Shown here piece by piece: positions 2,716-48,921 of a DNA stretch of 64,000 bases. The position numbers and the translations under genes were made by a program. How positions within the stretch are numbered: the first letter of the stretch is position 1; each line of letters begins with the position of its first letter. Source of the stretch: an uncultured Bacteroides sp. (GTDB lineage Bacteria; Bacteroidota; Bacteroidia; Bacteroidales; GCA-2748055); NCBI GenBank assembly GCA_964500835.1, contig CAZCQL010000004.1, forward strand, positions 10,590 through 74,589, in the 5' to 3' direction. The notes under the pieces were generated by a model, which ran no database searches, was not told the origin of the DNA, and saw only the letters and a program-made list of their open reading frames with translations.

Positions 2716-5700
2716 ATGAATGATTCCATGCTTAACTCCCTGATGCGCCTGTTTGCCATCCTGGTAAGCATTAACAGGGAGGCTGTGCATCTCTTTGCAC
2801 GAAATTTTGTTGAATCGTTCCTAATCCAGCAATTCAGTCAGAAAGTGGCTGACAAATACCTGCTAATTTTTGACGAATACTGCAAAGATCTGGAACAGTA
2901 CAAAAAGGGGCGAAAGGGGAAAAAAATATCTACCTGGTCGGTTAAAATCCTGGGGATCTGTAACCAGATTGTTGAAGAGCTTCACATCAGGCACCGGTTC
3001 ATGATCATTCTAAGTCTCATAAGGTTTTCCAGGTATTTCTCCGAAAAAGCAAATAACGCTGCTGAGTTTTCCAATACGATTGCAGATGCTGCAAAAACCG
3101 TCTCGGAGGGTTTGCTGATCGAAAACGAGGAATATGAAAACTGTGCTGCCTTTATTATTGACAAATTTTACAATGTTCCCTCTAAGGAAGGCCTGTTGAT
3201 TATCAACGATGATCGCAATTTTATTGAGGGCGGGATCAGGCATGTTCAGAAGGATAAACTATCCGGACAAATCTTTGTATTGAAGATAAAAAGGGCTGAC
3301 ATTTATCTGTTTCAGTATGTGGGGAAAGCCCAGCTCCATTGCAATGGCAAATATATATTCCCCAGGTATGTGTACTTTTTGCCCAGGGGTGGTTCAATTA
3401 CAGGAGAAGGGATATCACCACTCTATTATTCCGATATTGTATCTGGCTATATCACATATGCCCGGGGTCATTCGGTGGATTTTCTCGCCAGGGATATTGA
3501 ATTCCACTTTAGAAACTCTCAGAACGGAATCCAACAGTTTACCTTTCAGGGAAGATCAGGTCAAATGGTGGGAATCATCGGAGGCAGCGGTGCCGGTAAA
3601 TCCACTCTCCTGAAAGTATTAAATGGGACTCTTAAGCTTGACAAGGGTGATATCTACATTAACGGTCACCACCTGGTTGATGAAGCTGAAGAACTGGAAG
3701 GTATCATAGGTTACATTCCTCAGGATGACCTTCTAATGGAGGAGTTAACTGTGTATGAAAACCTCTATTTTAATGCAAAGTTATGCCTGAACGGGCATTC
3801 AGAGGTAGAAATCAATGAAGCGGTTAATGCAGTCCTTACCAACCTCGACCTCTATGAAGCCCGGAAACTGAAGGTGGGTACACCCTTACATAAATACATC
3901 AGCGGAGGCCAGAGAAAGCGTCTGAATATTGCCCTGGAGCTAATCAGAGAACCTAAAATTCTCTTCGTGGATGAACCCACTTCGGGCCTTTCATCCTCTG
4001 ACTCGGAGAATGTAGTTTCTTTATTAAAAGAACAAACCCTAAGTGGAAAACTTGTGCTGGCCAATATCCATCAGCCCTCTTCAAACCTTTTCAAACAGTT
4101 TGACCAGCTGTTAGTGCTGGACAGAGGGGGATACCCTGTCTATTCGGGCAACCCGATCGAGGGGATAACCTATTTTAAGAAATTGGCAGACCGGGTTGAT
4201 GCATCCGAGAGTGAATGTGTCACTTGCGGTCTAACGAACCCGGATGATATTCTGCAGGTAATAGAGGCCAGGGACGTAAACGAAGCAGGTGAATTTACCG
4301 CACACAGGCGAAATTCACCCGACATCTGGTACAAACATTACAAAGAAAAGATAGAAGCGGGGAAAGAGTTCAGATCAGTAAAAACATGGGTTCCCTACAA
4401 TAAGTATTTAATCCCGGGGGCACTCAAACAATATTTTATTTTTTTCAAGCGCAACCTTCTCTCAAAGCTGGCTGACCGTCAATTTATGTCAATTGCACTA
4501 TTTGTTTCACCCCTTTTGGCTTTAATACTCGGATTTTTTTCCAAATATGTTTCAGGAGATGATACGGATCCGCACAGGTACATTTTTAGCCAGAATGATA
4601 ACCTGCCTGCTTATTTATTTATGAGTGTGGTCGTAGCTCTCTTTCTGGGATTGATTGTAGCAGCGGAGGAAATAATAAAGGATCGAAAAATTCAAGAGAG
4701 GGAATCATTCTTAAACCTTAACAGGAGTGCTTATCTGTTGTCGAAAATCTCATTACTGTTTATCCTTTCTGCCTTACAAATGCTGCTGTTTGTGGTTATC
4801 GGGAATCTGATCATGGAAATCAGGGGCATGACATTTACCTCCTGGCTAATCCTGTTTTCCACAGCGTGTTTTGCTAACCTGCTTGGATTAAACATTTCAG
4901 ACGGCTTAAAATCAGTGGTCGCCATTTATGTAATTGTCCCTTTTTTATTGGTGCCCCAAATCCTCCTGGCAGGGGTCATTGTTAAATTCGATAAACTCTA
5001 CTACAAGTTTGCTGACTACCAGGTTGTTCCGGTATCAGGAGATATGATGGCCAGTCGCTGGGCCTATGAAGCTCTGACGGTCAATCAATTTATGAACAAC
5101 AAGTACCAGCGTGATCTTTTTGAAATGGAGATGCTCGAAAGTAATGTAACTTATGACATGCAATTTCTCGTTCCCGCCCTGATTCAGGAGATACAGGACG
5201 CAAAGGAAGGATTAGCCACTAATCCTGAGAATGGGAAATTGGGACCGCAGCTCAGGACCATTCGCAGTGGCTTCTCTACCATCTTCCTCACAAAACCATA
5301 TCCCGGACTGGACAACCTGATTCCTGAACAATTCTCAGCCCAGTCAGGGACTAAAGCCATACAGTGGCTTGAAAAATATAAGTCAGGCTTAACCTCCCAT
5401 AGGCGCAGATTGTCCGTGGCGCGGGATGCCCTGGTGGATTCGCTCCAAATCGTTGCCGGGGGAGCAGAGGAGTACCTGCAACTGAGGAGGAATTATTACA
5501 ATGACCAGGTGGCCGAGCTGGTATTGAATAGAGCCAGTTTACATAAAATTGTAAAAAAGGACGGCCTTCTGATGCGAAAATTGGAGCCCGTATATATGTA
5601 CCCCTCAAAAAATAATGGCCGGGCGCACTTTTACGCTTCCGTTAAACGGATAGGGAACTTTTACGTTTCAACTGTTGCCTTTAATTTGTGTGCAATTTGG

Positions 5701-34416: not shown

Positions 34417-35238
34417 TTATTCACACACCCTATCCACCAGACCAAGAGCTTTTGAATCCCAACAATGCCAATCTGTGTCACCAAACTTAGCCAGATCCAT
34501 AACGCGCCCTTCAATGGTGGTGGTATTCCACTCGATTTGAGTTTCATTGGCTGCCAGGGAGATGGTATACGAAGCATCGTATATTTCCTGGGGCATATAT
34601 GCCAGCATGATGTAGCTTCCGGTCTCTTCCATTTCCTGTTCCACATAAGTATAGGTGAGGTCTGCTTCTTCCGTTTCAAAGTCCTTGTTCCACTCTGCTT
34701 CAAGCACTTTAACCGAACCTTCCTTAAAAAAATTCCACGTGGCATGGGTATGATCGTACCGGACTATTCCGTCGAACCATTTTATCCCCTGGTCAGGGGC
34801 TAGGGCAAGGCCGATTATCATCTTCATGGAGAATTCTTCGTTGCTGATCCTTGCACCGGTTAACGTTGCGGTATAATCCAGATTATTTAGCGGAAAATCA
34901 AATGCCCATTCCCAGGTATTGTCGCCAAGATATTCCGGAGCTTGCTGAAGTGCATAACCATAGGCCACAACTGGCACAGCCATGGTAATGGTCGTGGCAA
35001 CATTCCAAAAAACTACAGACAGGTAAGCGTGAAGAAAATTCTCACTGGATAATTCTGACGCTTTCTTACCAGCCGGTTGTTCATTGAAAGCTGAAAAATC
35101 CATCACCAGACTCTCCACCGGGGGAAGGTTCGGCCTGTTATCAACATTTTCTTTATCACACGAGGTGAATGAGAGGAGCATCGACAGGGCTAGGGAAATA
35201 GAAACTATTGACGTAGGATTCAGAAACTTTTTCATCAT
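34417..35238 (-). CDS. Hypothetical lipoprotein (beta-rich)
   Basis: Signal with lipobox FTS-C; Trp-rich alternating strands; C-terminal Cys pair. Confidence 0.8.
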   Translation of the reverse strand: MMKKFLNPTSIVSISLALSMLLSFTSCDKENVDNRPNLPPVESLVMDFSAFNEQPAGKKASELSSENFLHAYLSVVFWNVATTITMAVPVVAYGYALQQAPEYLGDNTWEWAFDFPLNNLDYTATLTGARISNEEFSMKMIIGLALAPDQGIKWFDGIVRYDHTHATWNFFKEGSVKVLEAEWNKDFETEEADLTYTYVEQEMEETGSYIMLAYMPQEIYDASYTISLAANETQIEWNTTTIEGRVMDLAKFGDTDWHCWDSKALGLVDRVCE

Positions 35239-35315: not shown

Positions 35316-35984
35316 CTAGTTCCCCTGCACATGTTCTTCTGCAGGCACAACCTGGTATGATTTGTCTACGATAAGATCAGCCATAGGTTTCAGCGATACA
35401 ACCGAAAGGTGCTCTTTTTCCAGGATTCCTAAACGAAAGTCGCTCAGGGCTTCCTTCATTCGTATAATCTGGTTAATCTTGGTTTCATGGTAGGTCAGGT
35501 CGATAAATACCCGCAAATCAATGTCAGGCGCTTTTATAGCATAAAGTCCATCCACAATGAGAAGATCAATCTTACTGAAATCAGTAATCAGTTTATCAAC
35601 CTGTTCAGGAATGAGATCAATGCAAGGGATCATGCACTCCTGTTCTTCTCTGAAATCACGAATGGTTTTCTTGATTTTAATCCAGTCATATTCATCGTGC
35701 CCGATCTTATCGAAGCCCTTATTGCGACGCCATTCTTCCCTAAGAAGAGGTTGGATCTTATAATAATTATCTGTGTGGATCACTTTGGCCCTTACATGGT
35801 GCTCCTTAAAAATCTTCCCGAGGGAATGTGCGAGTTCAGATTTGCCGGAGCCAGATTCACCGGCTATGGCTACGATATATCGATAACGCTCCTCCTTTTT
35901 TTCGCGGTCTTCCACGATCCGTTCATAAATCACCTGAGCAGCATCCTTGTGCATATCATTGATCAGAAGCACGTCTCCTAACAT
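35316..35984 (-). CDS. Uridine kinase/PRK-like P-loop kinase
   Basis: Walker A AGESGSGKS, IHTDNYY, Walker B LIVDGLYA; 13 bp downstream of the betaPGM-GH65 gene. Confidence 0.8.
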   Translation of the reverse strand: MLGDVLLINDMHKDAAQVIYERIVEDREKKEERYRYIVAIAGESGSGKSELAHSLGKIFKEHHVRAKVIHTDNYYKIQPLLREEWRRNKGFDKIGHDEYDWIKIKKTIRDFREEQECMIPCIDLIPEQVDKLITDFSKIDLLIVDGLYAIKAPDIDLRVFIDLTYHETKINQIIRMKEALSDFRLGILEKEHLSVVSLKPMADLIVDKSYQVVPAEEHVQGN

Positions 35985-35997
35985 GGTATATGGATTT

Positions 35998-38900
35998 TTA
36001 ATTTAAGCTGATTGAAACAGGCTCATCCTGTGACAGTTCAATTTCTTTCCCGCAAAGATGTATTTTTATTTTTTCCTTTCCTTCATTTTTTCCTGAAATT
36101 TTAACCAGCTTTTTTGATACATGCACTTTGAATTTCGTTCCTCTGAAAGTGAATCTGAAATCCAAACCAGTCCATAGGGCTGGCAGGCAGGGATTGAGAA
36201 CAGGAATAGTTCCCTGCAGATTTAATCCGCCGAATCCGGAAATAACATCATAAACAGTTCCAGCCATAACGCCACAATGGACCCCTTCTCCAGTAGTACC
36301 GCCCTGAATATCAACCAGATCACTGCGCAACGCATCCAGATAAAGATCCCAACCTGTATCCTGCAGGTTCATTTGCCATGCCAGCTTAGCATGCACCAAT
36401 CGGCTTAGGGTCGACCCATGGGAGGTACGATTCAAATAGTAGTCGAAGTTTGATTTCACATAAGTTTCCGGAACGTGGTATCCCAATAATTCAATTAAAT
36501 GTGTGACCTCAGCACTTCCCAAATTATAAAAGCACATGAGAAAATCGGCCTGTTTGGCAAGTTTATAATCATCTGGTGATTTGCCCTCCGCTTTAAGGAT
36601 TCGATCCAGTCGATGGATATCATCATATTTATTTCGGTAATGATTCCAATCCAGTTCCTTAAGATCAAAATACCCCTTGAATTGCTCTACTATGCCTTCA
36701 TCCGAAATTATTAATGCAAGTCCAGTCATGATCTCCTTCCAGCGGGTGAGATCATCCTGAGTTATCCCAATTTTGTTTAGAACCCTCTCTTTTTGACCTG
36801 CATCCATATCACTCAGTATCCTGAAAGCCTTCTCCATCATCCAGCTTACCATGATGTTGCTATAGGCATTATCTGTAAGGCCGCCCTCTCCGGAACCCGG
36901 AATGGTCTCATGAAATTCATCAGGCCCCATAACCTTATCGATATGGTACCTTGAATCGCTTTCGTCATATGTGGATTTGCTGGCCCAGAACTTGCAAATG
37001 TCAAACAAAATCTCAGCACCGTATTTTTCCATGAAATCGAGGTCAGCAGTTGCATGATAATAATTCCAAACATTGTACGCAATGGCAAGCGAAATATGCC
37101 TTTGTAGGGAACTATAATCCTCCCCCCACTCGCCAGATAATGGGTTCAGATGAATTACCTGTGTCTCCTCCCGGCCGTCGCTCCCACTCTGCCATGGAAA
37201 CATAGCCCCTTCATAACCATACTCCAGTGCATAAGCCCTGGCAGCATCCAATCGCCTGTAGCGGTACATGAGTACTGATTTGACCACTTCAGGAAAATGG
37301 AGGTTATAGAAAGGAAGAATGAATAGTTCATCCCAGAATATATGTCCTCGATAAGCTTCGCCGTGCAGACCCCTGGGAGGAATTCCGGAATCAAGCCCGG
37401 CGTGGTGGGGTGAAGCGGCCACCATCATGTGGAACAGGTGCAATCTCAGCAATCTTTGTGCTTCCCGGTCACCTGAGACAGAAACGTCCATCTGATCCCA
37501 CAATTCTCTCCACCTCCCGGCTGACAATTGTGCCTCTTTTTCATAAGATGACATTTCTTCCAGGGTAGCTCTTGCCTCCTCTAGCGGATCCTCCACTCCA
37601 GGGTCCCTGGAGGTAAATATCGAAACCATTTTCTCAAGAATCACGGATTGTCCCTTTTTAGCATCCACCTCAAACTCCCGATCAATCCAGCCATTCCCGG
37701 AATTGCCTTTGGAACTGACCCCTTTTCCTCCATTTATAATTTTATTTTTGGCACAAACCGCAATCAGCACATTCGACTGAGTGGTTTCCACCACAAGCTC
37801 GATCCTGCCTGGCAGGGATTCTTCCGATACCGGTGATAACTGTTGTTGATTTAATGTGTTGTAGCGCTCCACACCGGCATTGCGATGGTCCCCTCTTAAC
37901 TCAGATTTAACTCCTATTCTCCCCGAATAATTTACAGGAGTTATCTTGTAACTCAGTCCCGCACGATGCGGATCTGCCATTCCTGCGAATCGCGACGATA
38001 CCACTCGTGTAATCCTGCCTTGCTCATCTTCAAGGAGCATCTCTCTTACCAGTTTGCCCGTTTTAAATTCCAACGAACGATGGATACTTTTTATACTAAA
38101 TGTGGATGTAGAATTAATCTCAAACCAGTATCCTCCATCGATTCGAAACGTGATAGGCAGCCAGTTTGTAACATTTACAAAATCCTCGTTTACAATATCC
38201 CTTTCCCCGATACTTGAGCTCAGGCGGTTAAACAGTCCCGATATATACGTGCCCGGATAGTTGATCTTATTGGCACGGCTTTCCTCCATGGCTCCCCGTG
38301 TCCCGAAATATCCGTTCCCCACTGCAAGAAGAGCCTCCCGGGACCGCTCCATCCCCTGTTCATAATCGTAAAAGTCCAGCTTCCATCCATCTTGTTCCAT
38401 TCCTGTTTCAAACCACCGATTGATTCCTTCCAAACCGATTTCTCGCAGATCTTCGACCACAATATCAGCTCCGCCAATCTGGAGCTCCATGGTATTCTCT
38501 TCCCGGGCCACCCCAAGCACGAATCCAAAGTTTCCTTTCCGTCCTGCCTGAACTCCTGAAACTGCATCCTCAACAACAACCGATCTGTGGTATTTTACAC
38601 CCAGGTTGTCACATGCTGTGGTAAATATATCCGGCTCGGGCTTTCCCTTCAATCCTATCTCTGCCGAGACAATGCCATCCACCCGTGTCTCAAAATAATG
38701 GAGCAAACCGGCTTTTTCAAGTACCGGTTTACAGTTTTTACTCGAGGAGGCCACCCCTATCCTAACTCCTGCCTCTTTCAGACCACGCAGCATTTCCACT
38801 GAGCTTTCATAAACCTCTACCCCCTCCATATCAAGCACTTCGTTGAACATTATATTTTTCTTGTTTCCTAATCCACATACTGTTTCCTGATCGGGAGCAT

Positions 38901-39162
38901 CAGATGGATCCCCAAATGGAATTTCAATACCACGGGACTCAAGAAATGATGCCACTCCTTTATACCTCGGTTTGCCATCCACATATGGAAGGTAATCTTC
39001 CTGATGAGTAAATTCTCTGAAAGCTTCCCCCAGCCTTTCTTCCCTGGCTTTCATGTAATCGTCAAACATTTTTTTCCACGCAGAAGCATGTACCAATGCT
39101 GTTTTGGTAATCACTCCATCCAGGTCAAAAATCACTGCGTCAAATTTGGGTTTAAATGCCAT
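35998..39162 (-). CDS. Beta-phosphoglucomutase (HAD) fused to GH65 glycoside phosphorylase
   Basis: HAD motifs FDLDGVIT, ASSS, KGKPEPDIF, VEDAVSG. GH65 motifs GNGYFGTRG, YRGHIFWDE, MFPWQSG, catalytic GPDEFHE, KQAD, HGSTLS. Confidence 0.93.
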   Translation of the reverse strand: MAFKPKFDAVIFDLDGVITKTALVHASAWKKMFDDYMKAREERLGEAFREFTHQEDYLPYVDGKPRYKGVASFLESRGIEIPFGDPSDAPDQETVCGLGNKKNIMFNEVLDMEGVEVYESSVEMLRGLKEAGVRIGVASSSKNCKPVLEKAGLLHYFETRVDGIVSAEIGLKGKPEPDIFTTACDNLGVKYHRSVVVEDAVSGVQAGRKGNFGFVLGVAREENTMELQIGGADIVVEDLREIGLEGINRWFETGMEQDGWKLDFYDYEQGMERSREALLAVGNGYFGTRGAMEESRANKINYPGTYISGLFNRLSSSIGERDIVNEDFVNVTNWLPITFRIDGGYWFEINSTSTFSIKSIHRSLEFKTGKLVREMLLEDEQGRITRVVSSRFAGMADPHRAGLSYKITPVNYSGRIGVKSELRGDHRNAGVERYNTLNQQQLSPVSEESLPGRIELVVETTQSNVLIAVCAKNKIINGGKGVSSKGNSGNGWIDREFEVDAKKGQSVILEKMVSIFTSRDPGVEDPLEEARATLEEMSSYEKEAQLSAGRWRELWDQMDVSVSGDREAQRLLRLHLFHMMVAASPHHAGLDSGIPPRGLHGEAYRGHIFWDELFILPFYNLHFPEVVKSVLMYRYRRLDAARAYALEYGYEGAMFPWQSGSDGREETQVIHLNPLSGEWGEDYSSLQRHISLAIAYNVWNYYHATADLDFMEKYGAEILFDICKFWASKSTYDESDSRYHIDKVMGPDEFHETIPGSGEGGLTDNAYSNIMVSWMMEKAFRILSDMDAGQKERVLNKIGITQDDLTRWKEIMTGLALIISDEGIVEQFKGYFDLKELDWNHYRNKYDDIHRLDRILKAEGKSPDDYKLAKQADFLMCFYNLGSAEVTHLIELLGYHVPETYVKSNFDYYLNRTSHGSTLSRLVHAKLAWQMNLQDTGWDLYLDALRSDLVDIQGGTTGEGVHCGVMAGTVYDVISGFGGLNLQGTIPVLNPCLPALWTGLDFRFTFRGTKFKVHVSKKLVKISGKNEGKEKIKIHLCGKEIELSQDEPVSISLN

Positions 39163-39251
39163 TTTGTTTATATTAAAAATTGGTAGTAGCCTATGAGGTT
39201 ACTAAATTTATAAAAGCGATTAAGCCCTCGAAGATAATAAATTGAGCATAC

Positions 39252-41474
39252 ATGAAACGTCTTATCCTGGCTTCAGATAAACTCCCGATAAATATTTCCT
39301 GGCAGGATAAGAATTACTCGATTCTTAAAACGGATGAACAGACCATTTCCGGACTACAGGACTTCTACGAGTTATTTCAACCAATATGGGTTGGACTCAC
39401 AGATTTCGAAAACCACGATTTCACTGCCAAAGAGATTAACATTCTGCAAAAAAAACTGGAAAATTTTAATTGCATTCCCATTTTTCCGAGATCACGGGAC
39501 CTGAATCTTTATCTCCACGGATTCTCAAGAAACACCATATGGCCACTGTTTCATTATTTTACAGAAAATGTGACTTACAGCGAGGTATCCTGGAAAGCCT
39601 ATGTGAAAATAAACAGGATGTATGCAGAGAAAATAATCCAGGTTATTGAAGCAGGTGACATTCTTTGGATACACGACTATCACCTCATGCTTCTTCCCCA
39701 GATGGTCAGACAGCAGAAACCCGGTATCACCATCGGGCTATTTATCCACGTGCCGTTTCCCTCGTTTGAGATTTTCAGGTTGTTGCCCTGGAGGCAAGAG
39801 ATTGTGGAGGGCATGCTGGGTGCTGATTTGATCGGTTTTCAGACTTATGATTATGTAAGGCACTTCATGAGTTCTGTACGGCGTCTGCTGGGAGTCGATT
39901 CCATTTTTAACAGAATCTCTATTGGTGAAAGAACACTCAAGGTTGATGTATTCCCCAAGGGCATTAACTACGACAGATTCAGAAACAAAGCCCTTTCAAT
40001 TCATAGTGATCAGCCGCGACATTCAATCATCCAGCAGGAAATGAAGCAGTTCAGAGAATCCGGACAGATTGAAAAGCTAATCATCTCTATCGATAAGCTG
40101 GACTATACCAAAGGAATACCACAAAGGTTAAGAGCATTCGAAAGGTTTTTACAAACCTACCCTGAGTACCAGGGCAGGGTCAGTCTCATTGTCCAGGCTA
40201 TTCCATCGGGGGAGACCAGTGAATCATTTTTCAATCTGAAAAGCAAGGTGGATGAATTGGTTGGCAGGCTCAATGGCAATTACGGGACACTCACCTGGAC
40301 CCCTGTCAGGTACCTGAACCAGACCTTTACCATGGACGAAAGAATTGATCTTTACTCGTTGTCAGACATTGCACTAATTCTTCCCATCAGAGATGGCATG
40401 AACCTGGTAGCCAAGGAATTTGTTGCCTCACGGCATGATGGTACCGGGGTATTAATTCTGAGTGAACTTGCAGGGGCCTCCAAAGAACTGCACGAGGCAC
40501 TTCTTGTCAATCCCAACGATCTTAATGCCATTTCAGAGGCCATTAAAGAGGCTATAGAAATGCCCGAACAGGAACAGGTAAGGAGGAACAAGGTGATGAT
40601 GCAGCGCCTTCAGCGGTTCACAGTAGCACGATGGGCCAATGAATTTATTAAGAGCCTGGAAGGAATTAAAGAAATACAGGAATTCACTCTTGCCAAGAAG
40701 GTTAACATCACGCGAATGCGGCAGATGGTGGCGGCATATCTTGGGAGCAAGCGCCGCATTTTTTTTCTTGATTATGACGGTACACTTGCCTGGTTTAAGA
40801 AAGATCCGGAAGATGCGAAACCGGACAAGCAGCTGTTCGGCATCCTCATGGAATTAACTTCCGACAAAAATAATACGGTAGTAATCATCAGTGGACGCGA
40901 CAAGGAAACCCTGGGCAGATGGTTTGATGATTCTTGTCAAATCCATTTCATCGCAGAACATGGAGTCTGGTTGCGTAAACCTGGAAAAGCATGGCACATG
41001 CTGGAACAGATCGATAATGAATGGAAAGAGTCGGTGCAGCCCTTGCTGGAGTACTATGTGGACCGGACACCCAAATCGTTTATCGAGCAGAAGAATTTCT
41101 CCCTGGTCTGGCATTACCGGAATTCCGATCCTGACCTTGGTATGCAGCGGGCCTGGGAATTAAAAGATGAATTACGGACCCTGACCTCCAACCTGAATCT
41201 GGAAATTATGGATGGGGACAAAGTATTGGAAATCAAGTTCGCCGGTATAAATAAGGGGCGGGCTGCACTCCAGAAGATGGGCCAAAAATCATATGATTTT
41301 ATCCTTGCTGTAGGAGATGACTGGACCGATGAATATACATTTGATGCCATGCCTGAGGAGGCTTATACCATCAAAGTTGGGACAAAGGCTACCAAAGCTT
41401 CATACTATATTGAGAGCGTCGAGTTGGTAAGGGAATTGTTGTGTCGATTCAGAAGAGAGAATTGTGATGGGTAA
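39252..41474 (+). CDS. GT20 trehalose-6-phosphate synthase-like domain fused to trehalose-6-phosphate phosphatase (TPS site degenerate)
   Basis: WIHDYHL, FIHVPFPS, DGMNLVAKE, LSELAGAS; TPP motifs FLDYDGTL, ISGR, AEHG, GDDWTDE. The usual SNRLP/GGL/DRLD/PSR motifs read SDKLP/EQT/DKLD/PSG. Confidence 0.92.
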   Translation: MKRLILASDKLPINISWQDKNYSILKTDEQTISGLQDFYELFQPIWVGLTDFENHDFTAKEINILQKKLENFNCIPIFPRSRDLNLYLHGFSRNTIWPLFHYFTENVTYSEVSWKAYVKINRMYAEKIIQVIEAGDILWIHDYHLMLLPQMVRQQKPGITIGLFIHVPFPSFEIFRLLPWRQEIVEGMLGADLIGFQTYDYVRHFMSSVRRLLGVDSIFNRISIGERTLKVDVFPKGINYDRFRNKALSIHSDQPRHSIIQQEMKQFRESGQIEKLIISIDKLDYTKGIPQRLRAFERFLQTYPEYQGRVSLIVQAIPSGETSESFFNLKSKVDELVGRLNGNYGTLTWTPVRYLNQTFTMDERIDLYSLSDIALILPIRDGMNLVAKEFVASRHDGTGVLILSELAGASKELHEALLVNPNDLNAISEAIKEAIEMPEQEQVRRNKVMMQRLQRFTVARWANEFIKSLEGIKEIQEFTLAKKVNITRMRQMVAAYLGSKRRIFFLDYDGTLAWFKKDPEDAKPDKQLFGILMELTSDKNNTVVIISGRDKETLGRWFDDSCQIHFIAEHGVWLRKPGKAWHMLEQIDNEWKESVQPLLEYYVDRTPKSFIEQKNFSLVWHYRNSDPDLGMQRAWELKDELRTLTSNLNLEIMDGDKVLEIKFAGINKGRAALQKMGQKSYDFILAVGDDWTDEYTFDAMPEEAYTIKVGTKATKASYYIESVELVRELLCRFRRENCDG

Positions 41475-42177
41475 AAATACCAAGATTCGTTGTTTTATGC
41501 ATGTGCCCTTTGAGGGTCCGGGAATTATTGCTGATTGGGCAAAAAGGAAAAACCATCCCATGGAGTATACCCGATTCTATGAGAGCGACCCCTTGCCCGA
41601 GATCTCGTCGGTCGATTTTCTGGTGATCATGGGCGGACCCATGAATGTGTTTGATTTCCATATTCATCCCTGGATGCAGGACGAGATCGACTGGGTAACC
41701 AATTACCTGAATGCCGGCAAGCCTGTTTTGGGAATATGCCTTGGTGCCCAGATACTTGCAACTGCTTTAGGGGAGGAAGTCTACCCGGGCTCCCAGAAGG
41801 AGATTGGCTGGCACAACCTGCAGTTTCTTCCCTCTTTGGGCGATTTCAGGCTCTGGAAAGATCTACCTTCTTCCCGAAAGGTATTTCACTGGCACGGAGA
41901 TACATTTCCCATACCGAATGGGGCCATTCGGATTGCCAGTTCACAGTCATTCCCTAATCAGGGGTTCATATACCAAAACAAAGTTCTGGCTCTCCAATTC
42001 CACCTGGAAGTCACTCCTGACTCGGTAAAGGGAATAGTGGAAAATAACAGGAATGAACTGGTTCCCGGTCCTTTTATTCAGTCCGAAGAGGGAATCCTGG
42101 GTGAGCTGAACATGTATAAAGAAAATCAGGATTTGATGATCCGGCTTCTTGATTATCTTTGGGGGTTTATTTCTTAA
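41464..42177 (+). CDS. Class I glutamine amidotransferase domain protein
   Basis: HVPFEGPG, MGGPM, nucleophile elbow GICLGAQ, WHGD, QFHLE; overlaps the TPS-TPP stop. Confidence 0.9.
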   Translation: MMGKNTKIRCFMHVPFEGPGIIADWAKRKNHPMEYTRFYESDPLPEISSVDFLVIMGGPMNVFDFHIHPWMQDEIDWVTNYLNAGKPVLGICLGAQILATALGEEVYPGSQKEIGWHNLQFLPSLGDFRLWKDLPSSRKVFHWHGDTFPIPNGAIRIASSQSFPNQGFIYQNKVLALQFHLEVTPDSVKGIVENNRNELVPGPFIQSEEGILGELNMYKENQDLMIRLLDYLWGFIS

Positions 42178-44409: not shown

Positions 44410-47400
44410 TCATTTCAAGAGTATTACTTTTTCCACATGGCTGCCAATTTTTATCAAGAGGAAATTTGAATTGTAGACAGAAAGATCAAGGATTGCTTTT
44501 CCAAATTCATTTAATACCGCTTTTCCTGCCAGCTGGCCATTAAGATTATATATTTCAATAAGTTGCTGTGGGTAATGTAAGCCTTCTATAGTTACTGTAC
44601 GTCTCGTTGGATTGGGAAATATTTTTAAGGCCACTTGAGCAGCAGCCGGGGGTACTGAAACAACATGCTCCAACGAATCAACCACCCAATTTTCAGGAAA
44701 ATGATTATCCAGACCGGGATCCATGAGTTGGAATACACCCAAATCAGAAAATCCTTCCATGGGCCACCTCCCGATATTTTCGTACTGCAGAAAATCAATG
44801 ACTATCCCATGGTTATCCTCTAACTGGATACCCTCTCCATTATTGGATAATTTACCACTCTCCCACTTTAAAACCTCATAGGGCTGACTCCGCCAACCTG
44901 GAAATGCCACATCATCGGTGAGATAAATGACTTCTTTGGGGTCTAATAGAGTTCCTTCCGGAAGTGTAACGGTGATGCCCTTCGTGATGGAAAAGTTCGA
45001 AAGATCGACTTGTAAGGAGGATGGATTATAGAGTGATAAAAATTCCGGGACATTCAGGTTGCCTGCGTTAATATAAAATTGATTAATCATCACTGCGGGC
45101 TCAATATCATCATGCAAAATCTGGGTCCCCATATCAACCGAAATACCATCGTGCAAGCCCGACAGGAGACCCGGGGATTCGGAATTTAACCTGAAGTCGA
45201 AAAAAGATGGCCGCTCAAAAAGTGGATTGCCAAACAAGTTGGATGACTGGCCTGGTACCAATGGGTTATCGGTGAGGCTAAAACTGATCTCCAACGAAGA
45301 GTACGGATCGACATACAATGGAGCATGTGATGTATTGGAAAGAATGCTGTTGGTAATCCGTACATTCCCCCCTGCAAAACCTAGGTTCTTTTCATAGCTG
45401 GCCACAGCGTCGACATTGTTATAAAAAATACACTGGTTAATAATCGTACGCCCTGAATCTTTAACTGCCACACCCGTATGACAATTAATAAATACACTGT
45501 TCTGAATAGAAGCGGATGATCGTTGTCCAATCGAGACACCTTTGTCGGTGATATTAAATACGAATATGCTGTCGATGGATATATTTGTGGAGTTCTCCCC
45601 GATATCAATGGCATCACTATTCACACCCAGAAAGTCCCGGATTTGACAGTTCCGGATAATGCCGTTTTCAATTTCATCATAATCGATCGCATCTGTATCG
45701 GGACGATCATTTCCAACAAAGCGGCAGTTTTTTATTATTGCGCTGCCATATTTCACGTTGATCAGGTCACCTGTCACCTCGGAATGAAGGTTACTGTTAG
45801 TAAGTGTTATTCCTGAATACCTGGCAGAAATCGGATTTCTACGCACATTCGTGAGAGTCAGGTTGTCAAGAACCAAATCTGCGTGAAATGCCGAAATGGC
45901 TGCAATGTCTATCACCGGATCCGGTCCAATGGAAGCATCTTCAATGGTCAGATAATTCAAGATGGATTCCCGGGGAGTATTTCTGAATGAAATAATGCCC
46001 CAACTGCCAGTTTCATAATCTGGATTTAGCCTGATGGTGATCCCATTGTCCCTGGTTCCCAGGGCATGCACAATTCCTCTAACTGATATAGAAGCACCAG
46101 TGGGCATCCAAATCTCAACTCCTGGCTCAATGGTCAATGTGGCATTTTCGTTGACTGTTACTTCCCCCCTGGCCAGGTATGGAGAGCAGGCAGCTGACAA
46201 GGTCAGATCCTCTGAGATAGTATCCGGAATGATGCAGTTACTGGTGGCTGTATAGAGGGCAGTTAAACTGATATCCTCCTCCAGAACGAGGGTGTAGAGC
46301 TTGGATTCCGACACGATTAGGTTGCTTGACTGATAGACTGACAATTCCAAATCGAAGCTTATATCGCTGCTGGTACTGTGATACTGGTGAACTTCAACGG
46401 CTAAAATATTCCCCCCCGCATGCATCAGGCTGCTATCCACCATGTATGAAATGTAGGTCGACTCCGCATTCCCGGACATTGCTTGTGTTGCTTCGGTGTG
46501 GTAATTTACATTGCCAGAGTTCATATTTGAGCGTGCAATTTCAACTCCATTGAGGTATACAATTGCTCCATCATCCTTCAGTAAGTTGATGGTAAATTGC
46601 CCTTTATGTTTTTCCTGCTCTGAAACAGTAAATTTCTTTCTGAAGTACGTGGTTATGTATTTATTCTGACTATCTGCTCCGAAACCCACAACGGTGCTCT
46701 CATCGCCGTCGCCATAACCCAATTGGGCATTCCCGGATTTCCATGAGACATCGGAGTATCCATCTCCGATCCAGCTGGTCCCTAAATCTGCTCCCGTATC
46801 CAGATATTTCCATACCGACCCTTTTGGAACGATGGTTTGTCTAACCGATTTTGCCCAGCCAAGAAATTCATACCCGGGTTTATTCTCGGCTAAGAGCTCC
46901 ACGGGCATATCTTTAAGGAAAGGGCCGCTGCAAAACGATCCTGGTACGATGAGTTGATCTATTTTCAGTGAGCCGGCATTCTCGGGAAATATGGCAAGTC
47001 TCAGGTTGGCGGAAGCACTATAGCCATGCGATTTCATATCGGCTAACAGCGCGTACGGCCTCTCCTTCACGAAGATTTTCAGTTTCTCAACTTCACTTTT
47101 CCAATAATCAACGGAAGGCATGGCATTGCCGTAAGCGGAGGTGGTTCCTTCCCATCTGCTTACATGCCGTGGTATTTCTGCTTCAATATCCTTCACGTGA
47201 CCCTTAATCAATTGCTTCATCCGTGTTGGATTAAAGCTGGTAAAGAGATGTCCGGCCAGCCTTCTGGCAAAATAGTCCTTATAAGATTGATTATCCAGAA
47301 GCTCCTTTAACAACAACTGTTGTTTTGAAATGTAAAAACTAATCAGATTGCTGGTCGGATTGAAATATCCCCGGTCGGTATCCAATAATACCCACTTCCA

Positions 47401-48921
47401 TTTACCCGACTTTTTTGGTTTCCATGCCATCACATTGTGATCAATAGATGTGTTCCCTACAGCCATTTCTGTGATCACATAATCGGTAAAATTTTTAATA
47501 TCCACGATTCTTGCCACCGAATCATAATTCGCTGTCAATGAGAGATCCTGACTGAGCAGCGAAAGAAGGTGGTTATATGCAACAAGGTCACCCGCTTCGG
47601 CGAAGTTTTCATTCTCCACTAAATCGAAACTCCCGGGTTCCATGTGGTAGCTTTTTTCAATGTAGTCATCATCCGCCTTCTCCCTTATATTGTGAATACC
47701 CATATATTCTCCATTGATATATACGACGGAGGGCCTGAAACCCAAAATATCAATATCCATATTTAATAAGGTCGCATGCTGTGAGAGCATATCTCTGAAA
47801 AGTGTATAACTCCAGTCACTTCCCGAGGCCCTAAGAGCAAAGGACTTATAACTGTTACGCGTGCGTTGATGAAGAACCGGATATGTCAGGTTGCCCGATC
47901 CGTATTGTTTCTTAAAATAGATTCCGAGCATTTTTTGAGGCAACTGCCATGAATGGAGACCATTAATCTTGGCTCCTGCCAGTTCGTTAAATGCAGCGCG
48001 ATCACTGCCATTGTTTTCAAAAAGTTCGATGTTTACCGGGATATCCCAACGCGGCTTGAAATCCTGGACATAAATTCCTGTTTGCGGGTCCCAGATATTT
48101 TCCGGAGCTGTGGCCAGGGATACCACCGGCAATTTTTCCTGAACAGAATTCTCATTAAGAAAGTATGATTGCGTGTATGTCGGACCAGGAATCAGACCGG
48201 CTTTAAAGATCCGCGACCGAACAATGGTTGTGGACTCGACGGGTATTGAAGACGAATAGATCCTTGAACGTAAATCGGGTTCTGATCCATCTGAAGTATA
48301 GCGAATTTCTCCGTCAAAATCGGTGTCCAGTTCCACAGAGAGTGGCGTGGAATAAAAACCACCCCTGACTGAAAAATTCGGTATGCTGCTGACAAACCCA
48401 TGGAATGGTTCAGTAGTATTTGAGGCATTGGGAGTCGACTGTGGAAAGAAACCCCATTCGCTGTTACCGTCGGAAATCCTTCCCAGCGAAACATCTGTTT
48501 TCTGTTTAGAAAAGGAAACGGAATCAATCAAAATAAGCTCAGGGGAAAAGAGCCCTATTTCTTCACCCAGAGACGATAATTTATAACCGGTATGCAAACC
48601 AACGTTTTTGCCGTCGGCCCAGATAAGCAAATAGCTGCCTGCAGCAATTGAAACATCAAAGGAAATTTGCCACTTATCAGGAACCTTGAAATTATCTGTG
48701 ATAAAATACCCGTTCAAGTTCAGGTCGACCGGTCCCCCATTATAAAGTTCAATCCAGTCGGCAAAATCAGTGTAATCAGGATCTTCAATCTGGGTTGAAT
48801 TGGAAGCTGCAAACTCGTTAATCACCAGTTGCCCCCGGGCAGCAAGTCCAGTTGTAAATAACTCGATAACCAGTGTCATCCGGAAACAGTATGTTGCCAA
48901 GTTTTTTTTCACATGAACCAT
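44410..48921 (-). CDS. T9SS-secreted CotH-family kinase with lamin-tail domains, Fn3-associated domain and beta-helix
   Basis: LTD (LVINEFAASN, DWIELYN; second VMINQF), PNFSVRGGFY...IRYTSDGSEP, CotH core (NGEYMGIHNIRE, WVLLDTD), parallel beta-helix (DAIDYD, DAIDIG, DKGVSIG), CTD KIFPNP...EKVILLK. Confidence 0.85.
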   Translation of the reverse strand: MVHVKKNLATYCFRMTLVIELFTTGLAARGQLVINEFAASNSTQIEDPDYTDFADWIELYNGGPVDLNLNGYFITDNFKVPDKWQISFDVSIAAGSYLLIWADGKNVGLHTGYKLSSLGEEIGLFSPELILIDSVSFSKQKTDVSLGRISDGNSEWGFFPQSTPNASNTTEPFHGFVSSIPNFSVRGGFYSTPLSVELDTDFDGEIRYTSDGSEPDLRSRIYSSSIPVESTTIVRSRIFKAGLIPGPTYTQSYFLNENSVQEKLPVVSLATAPENIWDPQTGIYVQDFKPRWDIPVNIELFENNGSDRAAFNELAGAKINGLHSWQLPQKMLGIYFKKQYGSGNLTYPVLHQRTRNSYKSFALRASGSDWSYTLFRDMLSQHATLLNMDIDILGFRPSVVYINGEYMGIHNIREKADDDYIEKSYHMEPGSFDLVENENFAEAGDLVAYNHLLSLLSQDLSLTANYDSVARIVDIKNFTDYVITEMAVGNTSIDHNVMAWKPKKSGKWKWVLLDTDRGYFNPTSNLISFYISKQQLLLKELLDNQSYKDYFARRLAGHLFTSFNPTRMKQLIKGHVKDIEAEIPRHVSRWEGTTSAYGNAMPSVDYWKSEVEKLKIFVKERPYALLADMKSHGYSASANLRLAIFPENAGSLKIDQLIVPGSFCSGPFLKDMPVELLAENKPGYEFLGWAKSVRQTIVPKGSVWKYLDTGADLGTSWIGDGYSDVSWKSGNAQLGYGDGDESTVVGFGADSQNKYITTYFRKKFTVSEQEKHKGQFTINLLKDDGAIVYLNGVEIARSNMNSGNVNYHTEATQAMSGNAESTYISYMVDSSLMHAGGNILAVEVHQYHSTSSDISFDLELSVYQSSNLIVSESKLYTLVLEEDISLTALYTATSNCIIPDTISEDLTLSAACSPYLARGEVTVNENATLTIEPGVEIWMPTGASISVRGIVHALGTRDNGITIRLNPDYETGSWGIISFRNTPRESILNYLTIEDASIGPDPVIDIAAISAFHADLVLDNLTLTNVRRNPISARYSGITLTNSNLHSEVTGDLINVKYGSAIIKNCRFVGNDRPDTDAIDYDEIENGIIRNCQIRDFLGVNSDAIDIGENSTNISIDSIFVFNITDKGVSIGQRSSASIQNSVFINCHTGVAVKDSGRTIINQCIFYNNVDAVASYEKNLGFAGGNVRITNSILSNTSHAPLYVDPYSSLEISFSLTDNPLVPGQSSNLFGNPLFERPSFFDFRLNSESPGLLSGLHDGISVDMGTQILHDDIEPAVMINQFYINAGNLNVPEFLSLYNPSSLQVDLSNFSITKGITVTLPEGTLLDPKEVIYLTDDVAFPGWRSQPYEVLKWESGKLSNNGEGIQLEDNHGIVIDFLQYENIGRWPMEGFSDLGVFQLMDPGLDNHFPENWVVDSLEHVVSVPPAAAQVALKIFPNPTRRTVTIEGLHYPQQLIEIYNLNGQLAGKAVLNEFGKAILDLSVYNSNFLLIKIGSHVEKVILLK

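Follow-up and report, generated by a model that had tools for sequence, protein, structure and literature searches.

Trehalose may be both made and mobilized around a reversible phosphorylase, in place of the canonical synthase, by a gene cluster of an uncultured Bacteroides sp. The cluster occupies positions 35316-42177 of a 64,000-nucleotide stretch of contig CAZCQL010000004.1 (hereafter the window) and comprises four open reading frames (ORFs) in two divergent arms. One arm encodes a fusion of beta-phosphoglucomutase (betaPGM) with a glycoside hydrolase family 65 (GH65) module, followed by a P-loop kinase; the other encodes a GT20 domain resembling trehalose-6-phosphate synthase (TPS) fused to a phosphatase for trehalose 6-phosphate (TPP), followed by a class-I glutamine amidotransferase (GATase)-like protein. 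These arms had been described at the same coordinates in a first-pass annotation made from the sequence, and the Pfam and NCBIfam labels agree with that description. We consider it somewhat probable (about 0.55) that the cluster is a trehalose make-and-mobilize module built around a reversible fusion of betaPGM and trehalose-6-phosphate phosphorylase (T6PP), in which synthesis would proceed from glucose 6-phosphate (G6P) through beta-glucose 1-phosphate (beta-G1P) and trehalose 6-phosphate (T6P) to trehalose with no nucleoside-diphosphate glucose (NDP-glucose).

In the proposed scheme, the betaPGM domain would convert G6P to beta-G1P, the GH65 domain would combine beta-G1P with a second G6P to give T6P and inorganic phosphate (Pi), and the intact TPP domain of the GT20-TPP protein, encoded on the other arm, would hydrolyze T6P to trehalose, pulling both reversible steps forward. 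The GT20 domain, which lacks the G6P-binding residues and part of the donor-phosphate contacts, would persist as a scaffold or as a ligand-binding survivor. For mobilization, the co-transcribed kinase would most likely re-phosphorylate trehalose to T6P, and the same fusion would then turn T6P into two G6P, so that the fusion-kinase operon would suffice alone at the cost of one ATP. The GT20-TPP operon would drive the opposite flow, from G6P via T6P to trehalose. Divergent promoters would permit the separate control of the two arms that is needed against a futile cycle between kinase and TPP. The fusion core is probably reversible, then, and not purely anabolic.

The betaPGM-GH65 fusion and the decay of its neighboring synthase domain

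The GH65 module has N-terminal, catalytic and C-terminal GH65 domains by its three Pfam matches (PF03636, 199.8 bits; PF03632, 404.4 bits; PF03633, 43.2 bits). Its best match in the PDB is 9lb6 (546 bits, E 1.4e-162, over residues 260-1021), with lower scores for kojibiose phosphorylase 3wiq (348 bits), a glucosylglycerol phosphorylase (261 bits) and a maltose phosphorylase (186 bits). Entry 9lb6 was deposited under the name 'trehalose-6-phosphate hydrolase'; in all likelihood it corresponds to the structure of a T6P phosphorylase by Feng et al. 2025, to which PMC13121652 refers. Residues of the module were mapped through the 3wiq alignment onto the CsKP numbering of a GH65 review (PMC11442529). 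The catalytic acid is kept (E749 in GPDEF; CsKP E483), as is the -1 subsite (W610, D611, K870, Q871), and a complete phosphorylase-type phosphate site stands in place of a hydrolase-type catalytic base (R597, Y604, S917, T918 and H962, corresponding to CsKP K/R330, Y337, S631-S/T632 and H675). The catalytic and phosphate-site residues are the same in 82 of 83 homologues, position 918 being T in 77 of them and S in five. Moreover, six correlated positions in GH65 enzymes (64/392/394/402/416/585) predict specificity (De Beul 2021, PMC8537180), with the motif DQGQDE marking T6P phosphorylases, TRIGPP trehalose phosphorylases and EEAPWS kojibiose phosphorylases (PMC8537180). The window module reads DQGQDE (D327/Q658/G660/Q668/D682/E859; the loop alignment at D327 is ambiguous, with D322 as the alternative), and these positions are invariant or nearly so in the 83 fusion homologues. 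DQGQDE enzymes of Lactococcus, Kuenenia and Caldithrix have been characterized as T6P phosphorylases (PMC11442529, PMC8537180), and we accordingly predict from its sequence that the window GH65 is one as well (EC 2.4.1.216, De Beul subgroup 22; T6P + Pi <-> beta-G1P + G6P). Maltose, kojibiose and trehalose phosphorylase were ruled out as identities by the specificity motif and the ranking of the PDB relatives. The earlier concern that the enzyme might act solely on maltose or kojibiose is answered in the negative by the same motif and by the 546 bits to 9lb6 against 348 to kojibiose phosphorylase, as far as sequence goes.

The betaPGM module exceeds the cut-off of the TIGR02009 subfamily (159 vs. 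153.35 bits) and falls below that of the TIGR01990 equivalog, which it matches as two stretches (110.3 vs. 189.4); against the PDB beta-PGM 8h5s it scores 204 bits. Residues D13, D15, G63, R66, S139, K174, E198 and D199 are invariant in the 83 homologues, D13 falling in a gap in two. They correspond to the DxD pair of nucleophile and acid, the Gly and Arg of the cap, the Ser, the Lys and the Glu-Asp site for Mg2+. Their counterparts in the betaPGM of Lactococcus lactis are presumably D8, D10, G46, R49, S114, K145, E169 and D170. The module is therefore predicted to interconvert G6P and beta-G1P (EC 5.4.2.6), and the whole fusion to catalyze 2 G6P <-> beta-G1P + G6P <-> T6P + Pi.

On the divergent arm, the TPP domain retains motifs I-IV (LDYDGTL, IISGR, LEIK and GDDWTDE) and scores 141.3 against a TIGR00685 cut-off of 68; its predicted reaction is T6P to trehalose + Pi. 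The intact HAD, GH65 and TPP motifs noted in the first-pass annotation are all present, and the three TPP motifs that were scored across relatives (DYDGT, SGR and GDD.TDE) occur together in 82 of 85 TPS-TPP proteins. The GT20 domain presents a different picture. The GT20-TPP protein scores 914.9 bits against the NCBIfam model for bifunctional OtsA/OtsB (NF011071, cut-off 634), a score with which it would be annotated automatically as active. We compared its residues with those of E. coli OtsA, using published residue lists. OtsA binds G6P through Arg9, Trp40, Tyr76, Trp85 and Arg300, and UDP-glucose through Gly22, Asp130, His154, Arg262, Asp361 and Glu369; every active TPS has these residues, and they are missing from the yeast and plant paralogues that fail to complement (PMC1769515). 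The mycobacterial equivalents include Arg18, Tyr90 and Arg324, together with Gly39, which is 'absolutely conserved' in functional OtsAs (PMC6879718). In the window, R9 is replaced by K, G22 by Q (with QT in place of the GG motif), W41 (Trp40 in the published list) by L, Y76 by L, R262 by K and R300 by G, while W85, D130, H154, K267, D361 and E369 are retained. Four of the five G6P-binding and two of the six UDP-glucose-binding residues are thus replaced, and the five acceptor positions read K, L, L, W, G. The suspicion, raised by the NF011071 score, that the TPS might not be degenerate after all was overturned by this residue-level comparison. It is probable that the GT20 domain no longer acts as a G6P-dependent T6P synthase and, by analogy with yeast Tps2/Tps3/Tsl1 and the class II TPS proteins of plants, that it has been kept for binding, scaffolding or regulation, perhaps as a sensor or an altered enzyme.

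The decay of the synthase domain follows the presence of the fusion. We used the fusion to search GTDB species-level genomes and the TPS-TPP to search metagenomes, and took 80 loci from each; the window arrangement recurs in 10 of the former and on 23 contigs of the latter, and is thus not due to chance. Residue states were scored in the 85 TPS-TPP relatives with a readable N-terminus. Among these, 54 are canonical and carry all 12 residues (RGWYWDHRKRDE), with R9, G22, W41, Y76 and R300 each conserved in 100% of them; in 50 of the 54 the upstream flank extends for 1 kb or more and shows no fusion, and the other four (L106, L114, L134 and L141) have too little upstream sequence for adjacency to be judged. 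The remaining 31 relatives have lost residues. Twenty-five of these visibly adjoin a fusion and six lie on contigs too short to show the neighbor, so that every TPS-TPP seen beside a fusion (25/25) is degenerate. TPS-TPPs at least 50% identical to that of the window adjoin the betaPGM-GH65 fusion, with the kinase beyond it, wherever the contig reaches. The losses are graded and lineage-specific, different sublineages lacking different subsets: the most distant linked members (L063, L060 and L098) retain R9, G22 and R/K300, some linked members carry R262P or R262W, and one carries D130N. The position of R9 is variable in the close clade (K/L/I/Q/T), which argues that no substitute contact is maintained. 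Within the linked clade, mean pairwise identity is 65.4% for the TPS half and 78.7% for the TPP half (a TPS/TPP ratio of 0.83), against 56.5% and 52.7% in the canonical proteins (1.07). Our reading of these values is that, once a TPS-TPP had a fusion for its neighbor, the G6P/NDP-glucose chemistry came under relaxed selection while selection on T6P dephosphorylation would have stayed strict. The degeneracy first suspected from the window is thereby borne out in its relatives, and a fully active TPS appears improbable given the lost G6P-binding residues and the decay in each TPS-TPP visibly beside a fusion.

Operons that pair TPP with a T6PP-type GH65 and have no synthase are found elsewhere. 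In a Planctomycetales metagenome-assembled genome (MAG; L079), a 255-aa betaPGM, a 298-aa TPP with intact motifs and an 831-aa GH65 are encoded consecutively; the GH65 reads DQAQDE at the specificity positions and its phosphate site is complete, and neither a GT20 gene nor the kinase was found near the operon. Relatives of this GH65 are common in Omnitrophota. The HAD - Trehalose_PPase - GH65 operon occurs again in L162 (24 contigs with the same neighbors) and L165, and other such loci have HAD-GH65 only or GH65 alone; the Omnitrophota operons hold TPP without TPS and without the kinase. To judge from these sequences, betaPGM-TPP-GH65 operons exist independently of the window clade, in Omnitrophota and Planctomycetota. 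A TPP would serve no purpose if T6P were being broken down. That it recurs in one operon with betaPGM and a GH65 of the T6PP type is the expectation for a route from G6P via T6P to trehalose. Two further observations concern these neighborhoods. A protein of about 182 aa with two PG_binding_1 domains always lies directly upstream (L079:7302-7850, L162:3776-4324, L163:4448-4993 and L165:3676-4236), and Na+/H+ exchanger genes lie near two of these four HAD(-TPP)-GH65 loci.

The kinase and its genomic contexts

No gene is linked to the fusion more tightly than the kinase. Among 49 loci with sufficient flank, 47 have it downstream of the fusion and on the same strand, at a distance of 400 nt or less in 37 of them. 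The first-pass account of the cluster, whose core idea is retained here, had left this gene unexplained. The fusion-kinase pair has also been observed in the Asgard archaeon Candidatus Harpocratesius repetitus, a Lokiarchaeon (L066:8001-11817, on a 4.36 Mb contig), where the fusion is 45% identical to that of the window and the kinase directly downstream 44%; this suggests that the two-gene module has been transferred between Bacteroidota and Asgard archaea.

The kinase has GESGSGKS as its Walker A motif, and its HTDNYY motif resembles the DSFY catalytic-Asp motif of UCK. True uridine kinase was rejected as its identity on the cut-offs of the hidden Markov models (TIGR00235, 50.8 vs. 220.3; NF004018, 50.4 vs. 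180), and with scores so far below cut-off the database name 'uridine kinase' is unsupported. A profile of 18 members found weak PDB relatives (1rz3, 3e-9; UCK2, 7e-9). An AlphaFold2 model based on 83 diverse representatives reached a predicted local distance difference test (pLDDT) score of 95.4, against 48.9 with 15 near-identical sequences, and its fold resembles PanK, UCK2, FrcK-like 3c8u, 1rz3 and PRK at template-modeling (TM) scores of about 0.6 and 15-20% identity. Judged by its modeled fold, the kinase is an uncharacterized branch of the PRK/uridine-kinase/PanK superfamily, and the fold search reveals no substrate.

A TreS-like GH13 gene (TIGR02456, 477 bits; PDB TreS 5x7u, 412 bits) lies on the upstream side of the fusion in 42 of 80 genome loci, mostly directly upstream and on the same strand, and such loci frequently have SusC/SusD and an MFS sugar transporter in their vicinity. 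The TreS context and the TPS-TPP context exclude each other. In TreS loci the kinase is present and TPP absent, in the Omnitrophota operons the reverse holds, and the window clade has both. The simplest account of this distribution would be that the kinase works from trehalose to T6P and TPP from T6P to trehalose. Genomic and fusion context make the kinase a candidate trehalose 6-kinase (trehalose + ATP to T6P), an assignment to which we give nearly even odds. Such an enzyme would connect trehalose that is stored, or made by TreS, to the T6P-specific phosphorylase. No characterized 'trehalose kinase' turned up in our literature search, and the term has been used loosely with no enzyme described (PMC4336185).

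Fusions of the kinase itself, drawn from a full-library search that returned 716 representative clusters of the family, bear on its substrate. Four kinase-GT20-TPP fusions of about 945 aa (P0367, P0373, P0374 and P0375) have a degenerate TPS site and a dead TPP site, with DYNGT for DYDGT, IISN/IISD for ISGR and GDDWSNE/GDDWTNE in the last motif. The general-acid Asp of the TPP is thereby replaced and the kinase part is apparently intact, an architecture resembling a pseudo-enzyme scaffold bearing a kinase. Inactivation of the phosphatase would prevent a futile cycle, and is expected if the attached kinase makes T6P. A further fusion, P0506 (762 aa), joins the kinase to a TreC-like GH13 (NF008183, alpha,alpha-phosphotrehalase subfamily, 589.6 vs. 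a cut-off of 535), and in two distant ones the partner is a sucrose-phosphate-synthase-like GT4 (P0467, 638 aa) or a GH100-like domain (P0482, 621 aa). The family as a whole seems devoted to the metabolism of non-reducing disaccharides, with which a hexokinase role is still compatible. One family member, P0486 (536 aa), contains an apparent intein with a LAGLIDADG homing endonuclease (Hint/Intein_splicing matches between the kinase halves).

The alternative in which the kinase is a glucokinase or hexokinase, feeding a TPS-independent route from glucose through G6P and T6P to trehalose, is compatible with the synthesis model, if a rather doubtful reading. All enzymes for conversion of glucose to trehalose would then lie in one cluster; the fold is as close to the FrcK-like 'fructose transport system kinase' 3c8u as to UCK or PanK; the distant fusions to GT4 and GH100-like domains fit; and the TreC fusion is compatible with phosphorylation of the glucose released. 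However, in the loci with TreS, fusion and kinase, a hexokinase would leave trehalose unlinked to the T6P-specific phosphorylase, and the Omnitrophota operons, anabolic in appearance, lack the kinase. The loss of both the TPS and TPP sites in the kinase-GT20-TPP fusions would likewise be pointless for a glucokinase that feeds synthesis and sensible for a trehalose kinase. Production of beta-glucose-1,6-bisphosphate to prime betaPGM was also considered as a role, without specific support.

Direction of flux and competing explanations

Sequence and comparative data establish the domain identities, the residues kept or lost and the synteny; the direction of flux through the fusion is what we infer from context and thermodynamics, and inactivity of the GT20 domain and the kinase substrate are likewise inferred. 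With an equilibrium constant of about 0.03 towards phosphorolysis for T6PP and of about 28 towards G6P for betaPGM, the combined reaction (2 G6P <-> T6P + Pi) would have a constant near 1 and an irreversible TPP would pull both steps. Phosphorolysis of trehalose is thermodynamically unfavorable, so that synthesis is favored (PMC11442529), and cascades of maltose phosphorylase, T6PP and betaPGM do make T6P in vitro (PMC11442529, PMC13121652). The proposal of the first-pass annotation that betaPGM-GH65 replaces the synthase step is favored by these in-silico tests, the synthase-less operons included; what holds it back is that direction is a matter of reasoning and that the fusion-kinase context elsewhere looks catabolic.

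Several points weigh against the make-and-mobilize reading. The equilibrium estimate rests on assumed constants, and in vivo the phosphorylases of GH65 generally serve breakdown (PMC11442529). The setting in which the fusion-kinase pair is met most often, with a TreS-like GH13, SusC/SusD and an MFS transporter, looks catabolic as well. If the kinase acts on trehalose, its co-expression with TPP would waste ATP unless regulated. The linked TPS-TPPs form one clade, which implies a single linkage event, even if residues were lost several times afterwards. In that clade the GT20 domain retains 65% conservation and keeps D130, H154, K267, D361 and E369, and may to that extent still catalyze something. 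Finally, two metagenome loci have fusions with most of the catalytic (alpha/alpha)6 barrel deleted or scrambled (L105, 4354-6777 on the minus strand, where the fusion measures 807 aa; L107, with the HAD part at 3760-4494). The HAD and GH65 N-terminal domains are intact in both, and the neighbors still include the kinase and a TPS-TPP that is partly degenerate, an arrangement that the model does not explain.

Some of these same facts suit a more conservative account, in which the cluster simply combines ordinary synthesis with ordinary catabolism. The GT20-TPP would be a working TPS/TPP that binds G6P through other residues, the fusion and kinase would degrade trehalose via T6P to two G6P, and the operons would be neighbors because both are trehalose-related. 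The NF011071 score, the retained donor-site residues and overall conservation of the GT20 domain, the typically catabolic role of GH65 enzymes (PMC11442529) and the usual TreS/SusCD setting of the fusion-kinase pair are all in keeping with it. Against it stand R9, G22, W41, Y76 and R300, which are universal in the 54 canonical relatives. Such residues are kept in active TPSs and lost in inactive paralogues (PMC1769515), and Gly22 is absolutely conserved (PMC6879718). Moreover, nothing replaces R9, whose position drifts among five residues, R262 has become P or W in some members, and the synthase-less operons pair TPP with T6PP alone. We regard this account, the main rival of the synthesis model, as unlikely. 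It is very improbable that the GT20 domain has instead been neofunctionalized, its altered pocket taking a non-phosphorylated or other acceptor to form another glucoside, so that the product of the cluster would not be (only) trehalose: the close-clade replacements are conserved (G at 300, L at 41 and K at 262), suggesting a stable new state, the GT20 family includes enzymes for other acceptors (GGPS scores 340 bits, below cut-off) and the pseudo-glycosyltransferase VldE is among the PDB matches, but the fused TPP conserves all four of its T6P-phosphatase motifs, the neighbor is a T6P-type phosphorylase, a neutral acceptor would leave the TPP without a substrate from the GT20 domain, and intermediate clade members lose different residues, which looks more like relaxation than redesign.

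Comparison with known systems places the make-and-mobilize reading more precisely. The pair formed by TrePP (EC 2.4.1.216) and PgmB of Lactococcus lactis performs the same two chemistries, and TrePP has the same specificity motif and phosphate site as the window fusion. The Lactococcus pathway is, however, purely catabolic, whereas in the window the enzymes are fused (1054 aa) and paired with TPP, implying flux to trehalose; there, too, T6P would not come from a phosphotransferase system (PTS), and the partner is a soluble P-loop kinase. With bifunctional OtsA/OtsB proteins (NF011071) the window shares the architecture of GT20 plus HAD-IIB TPP, intact TPP motifs and a score above the model's cut-off. 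It differs from them in lacking R9, W41, Y76 and R300 and in having G22 and R262 lost or changed, while the 54 canonical relatives keep all of these and none is visibly beside a fusion. In yeast Tps2/Tps3/Tsl1 and plant class II TPS, a GT20 domain has likewise been retained beside a TPP-type domain after loss of substrate residues (PMC1769515); these eukaryotic pseudo-TPSs are complex subunits that work beside an active Tps1, whereas the proposed source of T6P in the window is a phosphorylase. In-vitro T6P cascades already use T6PP synthetically and have betaPGM supply the G6P or beta-G1P in situ (PMC11442529, PMC13121652), and T6PP-based synthesis of T6P has been called 'new-to-nature' (PMC13121652). 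Those cascades are engineered and start from maltose, whereas the window suggests a natural, synthetic T6PP that works from G6P and is pulled by TPP. The kinase shares its P-loop fold, Walker A and DxxY-type catalytic Asp motif with the UCK/PanK/PRK superfamily, but its identity to these enzymes is 15-20% and its genomic and fusion partners are all disaccharide enzymes. In M. tuberculosis OtsB1, HAD, GH65 and TPP-like modules are presumably joined, the three kinds that also make up the window and Omnitrophota clusters. OtsB1 (Rv2006, 1327 aa) lacks TPP activity, a mutant shows no phenotype and the protein has no assigned function (PMC11046441). Some database records name standalone T6PP-like GH65 proteins (P0289 and P0308) 'Not trehalose-6-phosphate phosphatase'; this suggests a curator label for OtsB1-like proteins, and that annotators have met the OtsB1 puzzle before.

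Genomic setting and implications

The features of the locus are collected in Table 1. The kinase gene begins 13 nt 3' of the fusion gene on the same strand. On the other arm, the GATase start overlaps the GT20-TPP stop by 11 nt, and the DUF5916/CBM9 gene overlaps the GATase gene in turn. The GATase scores 180 against an NF005458 cut-off of 250, and it is kept 3' of the TPS-TPP only in the close clade of the window (L001, L002, L004, L062, L067, L071, L075, L082 and L084-L086). The DUF5916/CBM9 gene is a conserved 3' neighbor in the same clade only, and no functional tie of either gene to trehalose was deduced from sequence and synteny. The intergenic region presumably holds the promoters of both arms; a scan for sigma-70 promoters and terminators found nothing above shuffled expectation and nothing in 39163-39251, the consensus being uninformative for Bacteroidota.

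Table 1. Features of the trehalose locus and its adjoining gene (positions in the window).
Feature	Coordinates	Strand	Evidence
P-loop kinase, 222 aa	35316-35984	-	PF00485 42.8 bits
betaPGM-GH65 fusion, 1054 aa	35998-39162	-	Pfam and NCBIfam domain matches
GH65 module, residues ~260-1054 of fusion	35998-38385	-	PF03636, PF03632, PF03633
betaPGM (HAD-IA) module, residues 1-~250 of fusion	38413-39162	-	TIGR02009
Divergent intergenic region, 89 bp, AT-rich	39163-39251	.	sequence read
GT20-TPP fusion, 740 aa	39252-41474	+	GT20 and Trehalose_PPase (Pfam)
GT20 (TPS-like) domain	39252-40661	+	PF00982 484 bits
TPP (HAD-IIB) domain	40749-41474	+	PF02358 180.9 bits
Class-I GATase-like protein, 237 aa	41464-42177	+	PF00117 75 bits; GICLGAQ, QFHLE
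DUF5916/CBM9-like protein, 740 aa	42149-44371	+	PF19313 109.7 bits, PF06452 24.2 bits

On one side the cluster is flanked by housekeeping genes (PBP2, RodA, AcpH and a cyclophilin), and on the other by the DUF5916/CBM9 protein and then a CotH protein with a type IX secretion system (T9SS) tail. The latter (44410-48921, minus strand, 1503 aa) combines lamin-tail, CotH-kinase, chitobiase-C-like and T9SS C-terminal sorting domains, and confirms a Bacteroidota host with type IX secretion. A 273-aa ORF 3' of the kinase (34417-35238, minus strand) has no Pfam or NCBIfam match and recurs at 61-71% identity, at varying distance, near the cluster in four related loci. TreS and SusC/SusD were looked for in the window and none was found. 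The nearest relatives of the locus are uncultured Bacteroidales/Bacteroidia MAGs. The DNA is present in a 2011 microbial-mat metagenome run, a DNA run and the sole one with this sequence, and osmolyte synthesis is plausible in such a mat.

In textbooks and reviews, five routes to trehalose are listed (OtsAB, TreYZ, TreS, TreP and TreT), and T6P phosphorylase is regarded as catabolic. Much of what is assembled here is known: each enzyme family is, the chemistry of the fusion is that of the Lactococcus pair, the TPP is ordinary and the GT20 domain is like known pseudo-TPS domains. What appears to be new is the betaPGM-T6PP fusion, its use with TPP as a source of T6P that replaces the synthase, and a dedicated P-loop kinase; our literature search found no description of a natural betaPGM/T6PP/TPP route. 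At its most ambitious, and more tentatively than for the module itself, since on balance we doubt the full form, the proposal would read as follows: betaPGM, T6PP and TPP constitute a further natural route to trehalose that, in the Bacteroidales lineage of the window, has displaced the GT20 synthase, now a pseudo-enzyme, and is accompanied by the first dedicated ATP-dependent trehalose 6-kinase, so that a store charged by TPP would be discharged by the kinase via the same fusion. The same logic would give OtsB1 a testable function.

If the proposal is true, bacteria would make trehalose from G6P without UDP- or ADP-glucose, sparing the step of nucleotide-sugar activation. The labels 'bifunctional TPS/TPP' and 'uridine kinase,' which automatic annotation gives to a crippled synthase and to the kinase, would then be wrong, and a new kinase specificity would await discovery. 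The fused betaPGM-T6PP would offer a ready-made catalyst for cofactor-free production of T6P and trehalose, and for M. tuberculosis the proposal would supply OtsB1 with a concrete hypothesis.

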